A stretch of 44,920 nucleotides of DNA from a virus (taxonomy: Duplodnaviria; Heunggongvirae; Uroviricota; Caudoviricetes). The stretch covers positions 66,916-111,835 of IMG/VR virus record IMGVR_UViG_3300022173_000112, one strand, 5' to 3'. Under the pieces are notes generated by a model. It saw only the letters and a list, made by a program, of their open reading frames with translations. It was not told where the DNA came from and made no database searches. Positions within the stretch are counted from its first letter, which is position 1; each line of letters begins with the position of its first letter. Positions 3,846 through 13,911 of this stretch are shown here, piece after piece. The position numbers and the translations under genes were made by a program.

Positions 3846-6548
3846 GTGCTGAGAAGCGAAGCAATCAAAAAATTGCTCGTTGCTAAAACCCATGCTGACC
3901 TGGCGGAAATGTATTCCAAAAACATGGAAGTTCAATTCAATGTCGCTCAAGATGGTGGCGATCGAATTGAAGAAGATTTCAAGGGGCGAACACTCCACAG
4001 TTATACCGATGGTATCAACAAGTGGAGTCACTTTCGGATTCCGCGTAATGCGAAGACCGAACCCGAAGATAATGATTGCCCCGTGTATGGGGACATCTAT
4101 CAACATGCCGAAGGCGTTGGCATGACGGGTTGGGACTGGCAGAATCGCTTGAGCCGATGGGTCGCCTACGATTTCGACGCCATGACAGGTCACTCGGATA
4201 AGCACGAGAAGAAGATGACCGACGAGGAGCTTCAACAACTCCGAGAAGTAGTATCCGCGATTCCGTGGGTCACTATCCGATTATCAACGTCAGGCAAGGG
4301 TATCCACCTGTACGTGATGCTTGACCCAGTACCCACGCAGAATCATACGGAACACGCCGCCCTCGCTCGGGCGATTCTTGGGTTGATGGCTTCGATTACT
4401 GGCTACGATTTTCAATCGAAGGTTGACACCTGCGGCGGTAACATGTGGGTCTGGCATCGTAAGATGACCGGCACCAAAGGATTATCCGTCGTAAAGCAAG
4501 GAACGATTCTTACGGAGATTCCTCAGAACTGGCGTGATCATGTACGCGTCGTGAGTGGTGCGGCACGTCGCACGTTGCCTGCGTTCGTTACGGAGAACAG
4601 CGAAGCGAACCCGAACCTCGAAGACATGTTTGAGGAAGTAACCGGCACGAAGACTTTGATTCCGCTCGACAATGAACACAAGCGATTAATCGCTTTCATG
4701 CACGAGAACAGATGTTGTGCATGGTGGGATCAAGATCACCACATGCTTGTCACGCACACGGTACACCTGCAAGAAGCTTTCAACAAGCTGAATCTTAAGG
4801 GAGTGTTCAAGACAAATGCGAAAGGTGAAAATTACGGGCAAGACCATAACTGCTTCGCTTATCCACTTAGAAGGGGTGCTTGGGCAGTTCGTCGGTATAC
4901 ACCGGGGGTTGCCGAGGAATCGACGTGGGATCAAGATGGGCAAGGATGGACTCGATGCTACTTCAATCGAGAACTTGATCTCGCAACTGCGTGTCGCGCA
5001 TTCAATGCTAATGAAGATGAGAGCGGAGGTTATGTCTTTCGAGAAGCAGAAGTTGCAGCCAAAGCCGCAACTCTCCTTGGAATCGACCTTGGCATCCCTT
5101 CCTGGGCTAATACTCGATCCGCCCTGATTAAGAAGGGTAAGGATGGAAAGTACATTGCCCAGATGGACGCGACCGAACATGATGACCCACGAGAGATGAC
5201 CCAATGGAATCGTAAGGGGAAGAAGTGGTCACGTGTCTTGAGCGGTAAGGCAGAGGTTGCACCCGAGACCGAGGGTCGTAACTACGACGAAGTTTGCCGG
5301 CATATAATCAGTTCGGCCCATTCCAATTTGGGCTGGCTGTTACGTGCAGAGAAGGAATGGATTGACGAGCCATTGAATCATGTGTCCATTGGCTTGAAAG
5401 GAATCGTCGGCAAGCAAGCTCTCGTGGATACGATCCTGGGCGAAGCGGCACTCAAGCCGTGGAAGATCGTGTGCAGACCGTTCGAACCTGAGTACCCCAA
5501 GATCGCGGGTCGCGTGTGGAATCGGAACGCACCACAATTGCGATTCCGTCCCACGAATGCAGACACGCTCTCGTATCCGACATGGCTCAAGATTCTTACA
5601 CATTGTGGCAAGAGTCTGAACGAACCGATCAAGAAGAATAACTGGGCCAAGGGTGCAGGTATTCTTACTGGTGCTGATTACTTGAAGGTATGGCTCGCAT
5701 CGCTCTTCCAAGAGCCGTTGTGTCCATTGCCTTACTTGTTCTTTTATGGACCACAAGATAGTGGTAAATCTATCTTCCATGAAAGCATCAGGAATTGTTT
5801 GGTTACATCAGGAGTCGTGCGTGCGGATACGGCGCTGATTAATCAGCAAGGGTTCAACAGTGAATTGGAAAAAGCTGTTCTATGTGTGGTTGAAGAAACC
5901 AACATGAAGAAGAACAAAGTGGCCTATAATCGTATTAAGGATTGGGTCACTTCGGAAGAGCTTCCTATTCACCCGAAGACAAAGACGCCCTACAGTGTTC
6001 TTAATACAACACACTGGGTGCAGACGGCGAATGAAGCAGACGCCGTTCCTGTGATGGAAGGTGACACCCGAATCGTTATGGCTTTTGTCGATGAGCTTTC
6101 TCCTACGGATAAGATTCCTAAGAAGATTCTCATGCAGAAGCTGATGAAGGAAGCACCTGACTTCATTGCAGAGTTGTTGAGAATTCAACTTCCAGATTCT
6201 AACGACCGTTTGAATGTGCCGGTCATTGCGACCGAAGAGAAGATTCGTGCACAGCAAGCGAGCCAGAGCTATCTTGATATGTTCTTGGCTGAGCGTTATT
6301 ATTACGTCCCTGGCGAAACGATCCAATTCAAGGAACTTGTGGATGCGTTCCATGAATGGTTGCCGGGGAATGAACGTGATAACTGGATGATGAAAACCAT
6401 TGGGGAATCGTTGCCGGATAAATACGTTAAGGGACGTAGCCCGTCCACTAACCAAGTTATCGTTGGTAACATCTCCAAGAATAAAGATGCAAAGCCTGGG
6501 AAGGTTTTGGTTATTCGCAACGAAAAACTCGTACCATCGGAGACCTAA
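3846..6548 (+). CDS. primase-polymerase (AEP) fused to an SF3/DUF5906-type helicase
   Basis: GTG start at 3846 after GGAGG. AEP motifs YDFD and STSGKGIHLY; C-terminal Walker A FYGPQDSGKS, Walker B LCVVEE and motif C HWVQTAN. Confidence 0.92.
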   Translation: MLRSEAIKKLLVAKTHADLAEMYSKNMEVQFNVAQDGGDRIEEDFKGRTLHSYTDGINKWSHFRIPRNAKTEPEDNDCPVYGDIYQHAEGVGMTGWDWQNRLSRWVAYDFDAMTGHSDKHEKKMTDEELQQLREVVSAIPWVTIRLSTSGKGIHLYVMLDPVPTQNHTEHAALARAILGLMASITGYDFQSKVDTCGGNMWVWHRKMTGTKGLSVVKQGTILTEIPQNWRDHVRVVSGAARRTLPAFVTENSEANPNLEDMFEEVTGTKTLIPLDNEHKRLIAFMHENRCCAWWDQDHHMLVTHTVHLQEAFNKLNLKGVFKTNAKGENYGQDHNCFAYPLRRGAWAVRRYTPGVAEESTWDQDGQGWTRCYFNRELDLATACRAFNANEDESGGYVFREAEVAAKAATLLGIDLGIPSWANTRSALIKKGKDGKYIAQMDATEHDDPREMTQWNRKGKKWSRVLSGKAEVAPETEGRNYDEVCRHIISSAHSNLGWLLRAEKEWIDEPLNHVSIGLKGIVGKQALVDTILGEAALKPWKIVCRPFEPEYPKIAGRVWNRNAPQLRFRPTNADTLSYPTWLKILTHCGKSLNEPIKKNNWAKGAGILTGADYLKVWLASLFQEPLCPLPYLFFYGPQDSGKSIFHESIRNCLVTSGVVRADTALINQQGFNSELEKAVLCVVEETNMKKNKVAYNRIKDWVTSEELPIHPKTKTPYSVLNTTHWVQTANEADAVPVMEGDTRIVMAFVDELSPTDKIPKKILMQKLMKEAPDFIAELLRIQLPDSNDRLNVPVIATEEKIRAQQASQSYLDMFLAERYYYVPGETIQFKELVDAFHEWLPGNERDNWMMKTIGESLPDKYVKGRSPSTNQVIVGNISKNKDAKPGKVLVIRNEKLVPSET

Positions 6549-9465: not shown

Positions 9466-9819
9466 ATGGCAATCACAATCACCGAGATCAATATTCGGAA
9501 GCCCCAATATCTTGATTCTCGGCTCCTGGCGTTTGTTACTGTAGTCTTCGATAACTGCTTCGCAATCACGGACCTGAGGCTATTGCAGCTGAAAGACGGT
9601 CCTTTCCTGGCGATGCCTTCGAAGAAAGCATCTACGCCGTGCCAGCATTGCAGACGTAAAAATACGTTTGATTGCAGGTACTGCGGTAAGTGCGGCAAGC
9701 TCTTGGAGTTCAAGGCGGAAGAGCATTTTGACGTAGCTTTTCCGATCAATAACGAGTTTCGTCAATTCATGCTACAGTCGATCCTTGAGAAATACAAGGC
9801 TGAGACACCTGTAGCATAA
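9466..9819 (+). CDS. spoVG: SpoVG family protein with CxxC/CxxC Zn-ribbon insert
   Basis: ITEINIR...LLAFVTVVFDNCFAITDLRLL...GPFLAMPSKK...HFDVAFPINNEFR; insert CQHC...CGKC. Confidence 0.92.
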   Translation: MAITITEINIRKPQYLDSRLLAFVTVVFDNCFAITDLRLLQLKDGPFLAMPSKKASTPCQHCRRKNTFDCRYCGKCGKLLEFKAEEHFDVAFPINNEFRQFMLQSILEKYKAETPVA

Positions 9820-9825
9820 TCGTAT

Positions 9826-9905
9826 CGGTGAGTGATTTGTGGCATTAAGGCTCAGGCGTCCAACCCTTCGGGGCGTGACCAGAAAGTGTCTCCACATACT
9901 CACCG
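9826..9905 (+). ncRNA. unassigned structured RNA candidate C
   Basis: Long irregular hairpin: cggtgagt/actcaccg, tgtgg/ccaca, apical ccc-TTCG-ggg; ends 4 nt before tRNA-Thr. Confidence 0.45.
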
Positions 9906-9909
9906 TGTT

Positions 9910-10099: not shown

Positions 10100-10333
10100 A
10101 TGCTGAACTGGTTTCTCTCCCTGTTCAAAAAGTATCGGGATGGTGAGTCCCGAGTCGGCCGAATCAATTGGCACCTGGATCATCAACGGTATACCGTTGC
10201 TCTCTGTGGTGGCAATGAAATCGTGACAGCCTACAATGTGAATGACCATGAAGAAGTCATTCCACGCGGATCGGCTGTTACGCTCATCCACCAAAACGAT
10301 ACGTGGTACTTCCATGTGCCGGTGTGGCTATGA
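10100..10333 (+). CDS. hypothetical protein
   Basis: 77 aa with GGAG RBS; ATGA overlap with the HAD gene. Confidence 0.65.
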   Translation: MLNWFLSLFKKYRDGESRVGRINWHLDHQRYTVALCGGNEIVTAYNVNDHEEVIPRGSAVTLIHQNDTWYFHVPVWL

Positions 10334-10746
10334 GCATTCTGTTCCTTGACATTGATGGAGTCCTGAACGGCCACCAGAGACATGCTAATGGGTATTGCGG
10401 TATTGATTCCCATTGCATGAGTAACCTGAACCATGTAATCGCACAAACCAAATGTCTGGTTGTAATCAGTTCCGCTTGGCGGTACATGATGCCAGAAGCC
10501 ATGACCATTACTGGCTTTGAGTATTTACTCAAGAGTCATGGTTTGAATGGTAGTGTCTACGGTTACACTGAACGTGACGAAGTAATCACGAAACGCGAAG
10601 ATCAGATTTTGGCCTATCCCAAGCAAGGCAAATGGGCCGTTGTCGATGACCTTCCTCTAGCCATAGAGAACTTCGTCCGAACTGATGGTCGTATCGGTAT
10701 GCAACGGCATGAAGCCGAGATGCTGATTAAATTGTTGGCCGGTTAA
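10330..10746 (+). CDS. HAD-family phosphatase (Swiss Army Knife RNA-repair-like HAD domain)
   Basis: ILFLDIDGVLN (DxD), VVISSAWR, WAVVDDL. Start moved to MSILF. Confidence 0.88.
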   Translation: MSILFLDIDGVLNGHQRHANGYCGIDSHCMSNLNHVIAQTKCLVVISSAWRYMMPEAMTITGFEYLLKSHGLNGSVYGYTERDEVITKREDQILAYPKQGKWAVVDDLPLAIENFVRTDGRIGMQRHEAEMLIKLLAG

Positions 10747-11800: not shown

Positions 11801-11805
11801 CTATG

Positions 11806-11934
11806 CCTGATCGTCTTACCTTTGGCAAGGCAGCCGGTCAGGACAGCGGTGGATTAGAGCGTGTGGGGCTACACCACCAGGCTTATTACGAGTAGAGAGG
11901 TTGTGCCAACAGCCATACTGTAATCGGTCAAGCC
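11806..11934 (+). ncRNA. unassigned structured RNA candidate F (three hairpins)
   Basis: cctgatcg/cggtcagg (11806-11842), ggtgg/ccacc (11848-11878), and ggctt-attac-agta-ggttgt GCCA acagcc-tact-gtaat-aagcc (11880-11934). Confidence 0.4.
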
Positions 11935-11955
11935 CTTCCTTTTAGGAGATTCACA

Positions 11956-13062: not shown

Positions 13063-13134
13063 CGGTGCGTTGCTGGAAGGCCATAGCACGTGGTTTGGGA
13101 CCACGGGATGACGGTTCGATTCCGTCCGTGCCGA
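13063..13134 (+). tRNA. trnP: tRNA-Pro(TGG)
   Basis: CGGTGCG/CGTGCCG with C1-G72 and A73, CGTGG-TT TGG GA-CCACG, TTCGATT. Confidence 0.88.
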
Positions 13135-13135
13135 A

Positions 13136-13295
13136 TGCTGATGAACGCGGAGTCATGTCGCGTACATGAATTAGCGAGAGGGATACTGTGAGCCGCCGGG
13201 AATCCCAGCGGGTGTACACTCACGGAAACGAATCTGTTTCGCAGGTAGTCGTCCCAGGGATATATCTCCTGGCTTCCGGAATCCTGCCATCAGCA
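13136..13295 (+). ncRNA. unassigned structured RNA candidate H (160 nt)
   Basis: Closing stem tgctgatg/catcagca; inner catg/catg, ctgtgag/ctcacgg, ccgc/gcgg, gaaac/gtttc, ccagg/cctgg. Confidence 0.6.
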
Positions 13296-13301
13296 CCTAT
13301 T

Positions 13302-13355
13302 AAAACGAAAAAGCCCGCGTAAACCAATTTTGGTCTACGCGGGCTTTTTTCGTTT
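13302..13355. terminator. bidirectional Rho-independent terminator at the convergence of the two genome arms
   Basis: aaacgaaaaagcccgcgta...tacgcgggcttttttcgttt, with an A-tract before and a T-tract after. Confidence 0.9.
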
Positions 13356-13911
13356 ACACGTTTGCGAGGACAGCCGGTTTGTCGTAGACGATGATGACGC
13401 GGACAACACCAGCGGTGACGTTGGTGTCACCGAGGGCGGAACCGTTAGTCACGATGCCGTTGACGTCGATTGTCGTTTCACTGGCGATGATGCCGAGGGC
13501 ATCGGTGGGAACCTTATTGATCTGGGTATTCTTGGTCAGTGTGGCCAAGGTACCGAGTTGGTCAACGTCACCACCATGAGGTCCAATACCAAGCTTGACA
13601 GTGGTGCTTCCACCGACTGCGAGCGTGGTAATCTGTGCGATGACGAGCTTGACTTTCGAGCCAGCCGGAATCGTACAGACAGGTTTGTACTTCGTGGCAT
13701 TGCCAGTGAAGTCGATGACTTCATCGACCTTCACTTCGATCGAACCAGCAGGATCAGCAAGCATCTCGGCACGAAGTTGTGCCAGAGTGATTTCCTGTTC
13801 CTGACTTTGGCTCTTGGTCACACCACGGTCATCAACGACCGAGGTCGAGTTCTTGACCACAATCGTATCGACTGTGTAATCAAGATTGGGAGTGGATACT
13901 GCCATATTCAA
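13354..13911 (-). CDS. virion structural protein, putative capsid decoration/spike (paralog 2)
   Basis: 185 aa, beta-rich (VCTIPAGSKVKLV...VRVIIVYDKP), with highly biased codons like the coat gene. Confidence 0.6.
   Translation of the reverse strand: MNMAVSTPNLDYTVDTIVVKNSTSVVDDRGVTKSQSQEQEITLAQLRAEMLADPAGSIEVKVDEVIDFTGNATKYKPVCTIPAGSKVKLVIAQITTLAVGGSTTVKLGIGPHGGDVDQLGTLATLTKNTQINKVPTDALGIIASETTIDVNGIVTNGSALGDTNVTAGVVRVIIVYDKPAVLANV

Follow-up and report, generated by a model that had tools for sequence, protein, structure and literature searches.

The window (the whole stretch of DNA analysed, 44.9 kb) is the end of a 111,835-base virus record in which 21 tRNA genes are found. The element considered here, called H, lies at the junction of the tRNA transcript and the structural arm and begins 2 nt 3′ of a tRNA-Pro gene. 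The surrounding features are:

13063–13134, plus strand: tRNA-Pro(UGG), directly 5′ of H; the gap to H is 2–3 nt in all five phage lineages
13135–13299, plus strand: indel module; the entire segment is missing in sister phages L108/L149, L440 and L444, in which tRNA-Pro directly touches the terminator
13301–13356, both strands: bidirectional intrinsic terminator hairpin, immediately 3′ of H, separating the tRNA transcript from the structural arm

An earlier note on this DNA had placed H between tRNA-Pro and the terminator, as the last product of the plus-strand tRNA transcript; the position is correct, and the reading is supported. The supported view, judged from sequence, is that H is a structured, conserved non-coding RNA closing this transcript. 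No notable reading frame crosses H in the window, the phage genome has no second copy, and a search of that genome revealed no reverse transcriptase, RtcB or CCA-adding genes. Antisense targets of H gave no match longer than 12 nt.

Sister phages carry DUF1559 genes, a family which we take to point to Planctomycetota hosts, and the host is therefore probably a planctomycete. In several sister phages a sulfotransferase gene (PF17784) comes last in the transcript, after tRNA-Pro or the H homologue. The positions of these genes are:

L154 9123–9923, L436 8852–9661 and L440 7349–8164, minus strand: DUF1559/SBP_bac_10 prepilin-like genes within the tRNA island
L151 6600–7886, L152 6603–7871, L154 6821–8113 and L436 6673–7944, all minus strand: sulfotransferase (PF17784)

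Direct searches for H homologues gave none, and sister phages were reached via the neighbouring structural protein. The H family now comprises H and five homologues of 86–141 nt (overall range 86–159 nt); the distinct sequences are only six, five of them from one phage clade. Homologues are situated 2–3 nt 3′ of tRNA-Pro(UGG) in L147/L148, L152, L154 and L436–438. The fifth, L304, came from a metagenome pattern scan and occupies an intergenic gap of an unrelated contig with no tRNA nearby. In L151, which has no H, tRNA-Pro directly adjoins a gene. The H gene is a clean 165-nt indel, and its presence is patchy across the tree of the neighbouring protein.

A strict descriptor search recovered these members only, and a looser one added 14 unconvincing matches in 8.8 Mb. 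BLAST against INPHARED phages and PLSDB gave no full-length match; no member was found in GTDB genomes by a pattern scan with the short form only, or in 401 genomes of the phylum Planctomycetota by a 5′-half scan. The literature searched, with incomplete coverage, held no account of the family. Several other candidates were rejected: a scan with AGCGAGAGGGATAC gave 107 matches, which is chance level, int–alpA neighbours among them; the motif match in L415 falls within a DnaB reading frame; the matches in L412 and L425 are without the 5′ half; and L280 and L336 are without the T-stem partner. L280, L297 and L336 contain a recurring metagenomic segment in which GAACGCGGA and UCGCAGG are preceded by a long hairpin; it is not H-like, has no Rfam match and is possibly another non-coding RNA.

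When the members are compared, the H family is a tRNA cloverleaf frame without an anticodon. The order of its blocks is that of a tRNA: 7-bp acceptor, two linker bases, 3-bp D-stem, anticodon-position arm, U47 C48 and 5-bp T-stem. In H these are read as follows:

13137–13295, plus strand: predicted mature RNA body, 159 nt, from G+1 to discriminator A73, with ends deduced from tRNA geometry
13137–13143, plus strand: acceptor stem 5′ strand, pairing with 13288–13294
13144–13151, plus strand: invariant AACGCGGA, covering positions 8–9, the D-stem 5′ strand CGC (13146–13148) and GGA; identical in 6/6 members, with pairing predicted only
13153–13169, plus strand: hairpin inserted in the D-loop, with palindromic tip CGCG at 13159–13162; the tip is GGCC in L147/L152, GCGC in L154 and UGCA in L436
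13171–13176, plus strand: invariant UUAGCG, D-loop 3′ end and D-stem 3′ strand
13177–13238, plus strand: anticodon-position arm without an anticodon loop; helix 13186–13192/13219–13225, hairpin 13193–13211 and 7-nt bulge 13212–13218 with palindrome UGUACA
13239–13245, plus strand: U47 C48 and T-stem 5′ strand GCAGG (13241–13245); C50–G64 becomes U–A in L436
13246–13282, plus strand: insert replacing the T-loop, with palindrome GAUAUAUC at 13259–13266; the insert is 5–56 nt in homologues
13283–13297, plus strand: T-stem 3′ strand, acceptor 3′ strand, A73 (13295) and encoded CC (13296–13297), from family comparison

Invariant blocks are the inner acceptor pairs, AACGCGGA, UUAGCG, UCG(C/U)AGG, CCU(G/A)C, U−1 (13136) and A73. 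The 7-bp acceptor stem is paired in 42/42 cells of the six members, with two-sided changes at pairs 1–5, and the 5-bp T-stem in 30/30 cells, with one compensatory change, at 50–64. The anticodon-position arm has an A–U to U–A change between H and L436. All 25 pairs are kept between these two, with three two-sided changes, one of them in the long arm; as a comparison of two sequences this is alone not significant. MAFFT misaligns the variable inserts of the family. The 160 nt of H fold at −61.9 kcal/mol (z −2.71, 3 of 200 shuffles equally good), and fold z-scores of the members range from −2.0 to −4.6. In five of six members the cloverleaf costs no more than 1.2 kcal relative to the unconstrained ensemble; the exception, L154, prefers another helix. 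This alternative, G22–C50, is favoured in L154 only and is contradicted by the change of C50–G64 to U–A. The D-stem, the letters of which are invariant and which therefore shows no covariation, is a modelled part of the frame, with predicted probabilities of 0.34 in H, 0.21 in L304 and 0.09 in L154. As far as comparison of members can tell, the H family is a real, selected and previously undescribed RNA family with a well-supported structure.

The earlier note had proposed an 8-bp closing stem (13136–13143/13288–13295) around at least five helices, and both are present in the predicted fold; pair probabilities in the closing stem are about 1.0, with 0.54 for the terminal U–A. Since U13136 occupies position −1, the mature 5′ end is likely G13137. 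The proposed pairing of gcagg with cctgc holds for the partner at 13283–13287 (p 0.92), the gcagg strand itself lying at 13241–13245 and not at 13240–13244. The pair forms a nested helix, the T-stem, in a stack with the closing stem, rather than the pseudoknot that had been suggested. The linkers described as unpaired and purine-rich mostly take part in helices: GCG forms the 3′ side of the D-stem, AGA opens the anticodon-position arm and GCAGG belongs to the T-stem. A large ornate or pseudoknotted motif is likewise not borne out, the invariant letters fitting a tRNA cloverleaf and the smallest homologue having 86 nt. The homologue comparison that had been advised finds H conserved with compensatory changes in its helices.

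The likeness to canonical tRNA (RF00005) extends to helix order and lengths, G15/C48, G53–C61, A73 and the 7-bp acceptor stacked on a 5-bp T stem. Unlike tRNA, H has no anticodon loop, U8, A14, G18G19 or T-loop; it is therefore unable to decode and is without a normal elbow. The anticodon-position arm is variable (21–62 nt), with no conserved triplet and no 5-bp stem with 7-nt loop; the elbow letters U8, A14, G18G19 and UUCRA give way to A8, G14 and inserts in the D- and T-loops. An encoded CC follows A73 in 4/6 family members vs. 0/64 tRNA genes of the phage group. ARAGORN and Rfam, including RF00005, give no match for the family, which is an RNA gene class missed by both.

Non-coding stable RNAs are also found in the tRNA clusters of phages T5 and T4, and the H gene is similarly non-decoding, cloverleaf-like and situated in a cluster. 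T5 RNA1 and RNA2 are annotated as ‘tRNA-like stable RNA with unknown functions’ (AY543070), and T4 has RNAC and RNAD (NC_000866; PMC3014915). Such RNAs have long been annotated, still with no function (PMC3014915, PMC12685909). When folded here, RNA1 and RNA2 form a cloverleaf with an enlarged anticodon-position arm. The T5 and T4 RNAs have no sequence similarity to H (best matches 9 nt, E 0.5–0.8), and RNA1, RNA2 and RNAC retain the canonical UUCRA T-loop. That T-loop is lost from the H family, in which each of the three loops contains an insert and the tips are palindromic.

No Rfam 15 model matches H even at E 10, raiA, ROOL and GOLLD included, and a pseudoknotted fold of GOLLD/ROOL/raiA type is not upheld: conserved loop–loop pairing is absent, and so is the defining linker of raiA. 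The raiA motif (RF03072) has a UUAGA(C/A)GUAA linker and two pseudoknots (PMC12968392); H has no covariance-model match to it and no such linker. A circularly permuted raiA was rejected as well, RF03072 giving no match, the linker and PK1 complement being missing and a pattern scan reaching chance level only; the letters that H has in common with a raiA reading are tRNA T-arm letters. HDV-like theta ribozymes lie directly 3′ of tRNA and have a 5′ P1 closed internally in a nested double pseudoknot (PMC10879173). In H the partner of the 5′ strand is the 3′ terminus, and no internal partner is conserved. For a hammerhead (CUGANGA + GAAA core), the CUGAUGA at 13138–13144 is not kept in L152, L154, L436 or L304.

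The D-loop insert is a hairpin of 18–20 nt, the palindromic tip of which differs between lineages. Palindromes occur in 3.3–6.5% of comparable hairpins with 4-nt loops and in 10–11% of those with 5-nt loops, and the chance of the D-arm tips is about 3 in 10,000 when H is set aside as the discovery case and the other three count as independent. The palindrome total per molecule is at chance level; only the position exceeds chance. In the 7-nt bulge of the long arm, UGUACA in H is UCAUGA in L436, so that four central letters differ and the palindrome is retained; a loop of L154 contains UGUACA. L304 has two mutually complementary loops instead, UUUGUCA and UGACAAA. D-loop/T-loop kissing is possible in L147 and L152 only. 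Palindrome switching was used by Kretsch et al. as evidence of intermolecular kissing in OLE and GOLLD (PMC12286853), and this sequence signature, a possible sign of homo-oligomers built on symmetric kissing loops, is present in the H family. The lineage-specific D-arm palindromes, the UGUACA/UCAUGA switch and the L304 loop pair therefore suggest association, and the formation of dimers or small oligomers via palindromic tips is modestly favoured, with the caveats that 4-nt loops may prefer extended duplexes to kissing and that perfect hairpins can come from fold-back mutation. Arms are shuffled between phages (compared for L147, L152, L436 and window 13153–13238): L147, the nearest relative of the window, shares arms with the distant L152, and the long arm of the window is common to the distant L436.

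The preferred reading, to which a probability of about 0.36 is given, is that H may be a non-decoding, self-associating tRNA mimic acting as a decoy for a host tRNA-binding protein. H would be co-transcribed with the tRNA array, and host RNase P would cut at G13137, the same cut freeing the 3′ end of tRNA-Pro. Trimming and addition of the CCA end by host enzymes would then give a stable RNA, and pairing of palindromic loop tips between H molecules would, somewhat probably, produce dimers or small oligomers. In the weakest step, the oligomer might display several tRNA ‘top halves’ that lack a cleavable anticodon and so titrate a host protein that binds tRNA, with a tRNA-targeting defence effector as the most plausible target and the tRNA pool protected in infection. 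Cas12a3 is a defence nuclease that engages the T-arm, acceptor stem and CCA tail, and the anticodon loop is the cut site of PrrC, VapC and PARIS (PMC12851939). The decoy is proposed because the gene is accessory and recombining, the effector-engaged top half is kept and the loop cut by PrrC, VapC and PARIS is absent; patchy presence and arm swapping between phages fit an accessory conflict gene. Against it, the T-loop/D-loop elbow, which is read by many tRNA-binding proteins, is lost in H. Because the acceptor letters differ between members, a fixed synthetase identity is not expected. The family is a natural deletion series, with an 86-nt minimal form, that of L147, longer forms on the same core and naturally swapped palindromes; processing, self-assembly and decoy activity are therefore directly testable in vitro. 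The wider idea that such RNAs are natural nano-assemblies on a tRNA frame, whose exchangeable sticky arms build a multivalent decoy against tRNA-targeting immunity, is doubtful; if true, it would be RNA-only counter-defence through mimicry, not tRNA replacement, and would offer a function for tRNA-like RNAs of the T4/T5 type.

The strongest alternative, itself unlikely, is a structural RNA assembly in which the tRNA body would be a processing and stability scaffold only and the function would belong to an oligomer made of RNA alone, like OLE, ROOL or GOLLD on a small scale. GOLLD and ROOL are likewise found in phage tRNA islands, and OLE and GOLLD have sequence-switching palindromic kissing loops (PMC12286853); the switching palindromes and freely varying arm lengths of H agree with this. 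However, GOLLD, ROOL and OLE are several hundred nt long, whereas H and its relatives are 86–159 nt long, follow a tRNA frame and match none of them in Rfam, the invariant letters are in the tRNA core and not in the arms, and the 86-nt form is little more than core.

It is distinctly unlikely that H is an aminoacylated or CCA-bearing mimic entering translation through EF-Tu, the ribosome or trans-editing factors, as does the tRNA-like domain of tmRNA. The 12-bp acceptor/T stack, A73 and the partly encoded CC would allow such a role, but G3–U70 is found in no member, acceptor pairs 1–5 are variable, and T-loop consensus and a tag-like reading frame are absent. For the same lack of G3–U70 and tag frame, H was rejected as a tmRNA tRNA-like domain, and the ARAGORN tmRNA search was empty.

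Improbable, too, is a role purely as a processing aid in cis, in which cleavage of H by RNase P generates the 3′ end of tRNA-Pro and H is otherwise inert. Its attraction is the spacing of 2–3 nt to tRNA-Pro, constant in five lineages, together with the invariant U−1; yet the same tRNA occurs without H in four sister lineages, L304 has no tRNA nearby, and elaborate arms would be unnecessary.

The origin of H is a separate matter, for which descent from tRNA-Pro is plausible. The invariant blocks of the family, used as an IMG/VR query, recovered eight real tRNAs, five of them tRNA-Pro(UGG). Three natural phage tRNA-Pro(UGG) genes match 27/27 core letters, 20 of the 27 being preset by the search pattern, and L304 has its best BLAST match in a phage tRNA-Pro (E 0.08). 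When identities are averaged by isotype, however, Pro does not stand out, and host tRNAs with an identical T-arm are those for Tyr, Met, Val and Arg. The tRNA-Pro of the window (13063–13134) and those of L151, L154 and L444 have an unusual D-arm (UUGC-UGGAAGG-CAUAGC, with U9 and without the U8-A9-G10 start); a conventional tRNA-Pro is found at the same site in L147 and L152. Template switching can produce perfect palindromes, and this, with the tRNA-Pro-like core and the patchy presence, could suit a decaying, functionless tRNA-Pro duplicate with fold-back palindromic insertions. Such a duplicate is very improbable in view of the compensatory changes in three helices, the invariance of the non-tRNA letters A8 and G14 though the phages are only ~66–78% identical nearby, and the position of the bulge palindrome away from the hairpin centre.

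Least credible is a Y RNA partner of a phage-encoded Ro60, since, although a TROVE protein is encoded in the genome and Y RNAs such as YrlA (RF02553) are tRNA mimics with conserved D- and T-stem letters (PMC4201824), H lies 40 kb from Ro60, has 0/22 repeated 8-mers of the Ro60-adjacent repeats in common, lacks the Ro60-binding motif GNCGAAN0–1G, the T-loop and the permuted order of YrlA, whose gene is next to Ro60, differs from YrlA in that its acceptor stem is terminal, and is not matched by the YrlA model.

Other elements were observed in the tRNA island and in relatives. In the window, a structured element at 9822–9909 (GUGGCAUUAAGG ... CUCCACAUAC) is 5′ of tRNA-Thr, and its homologue occupies the Asn–Pro gap in L108/L149 (L108 10678–10763, minus strand). 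With one site before tRNA-Thr and the other in the Asn–Pro gap, RNA cassettes evidently shift between tRNA slots. An unannotated element at window 11802–11935, 3′ of tRNA-Gly, is 80–90% identical in L108, L149, L151 and L154 and has no match in Rfam. In L147, another tRNA-like gene, at about 5025–5092 (minus strand), comes after the H homologue; it has the loop CUGACAA and the T-loop AUCGAAU and is missed by ARAGORN and Rfam. The tRNA island of the window also includes HAD_SAK_2 (RNA-repair-type HAD) and SpoVG genes (10303–10746 and 9466–9819).
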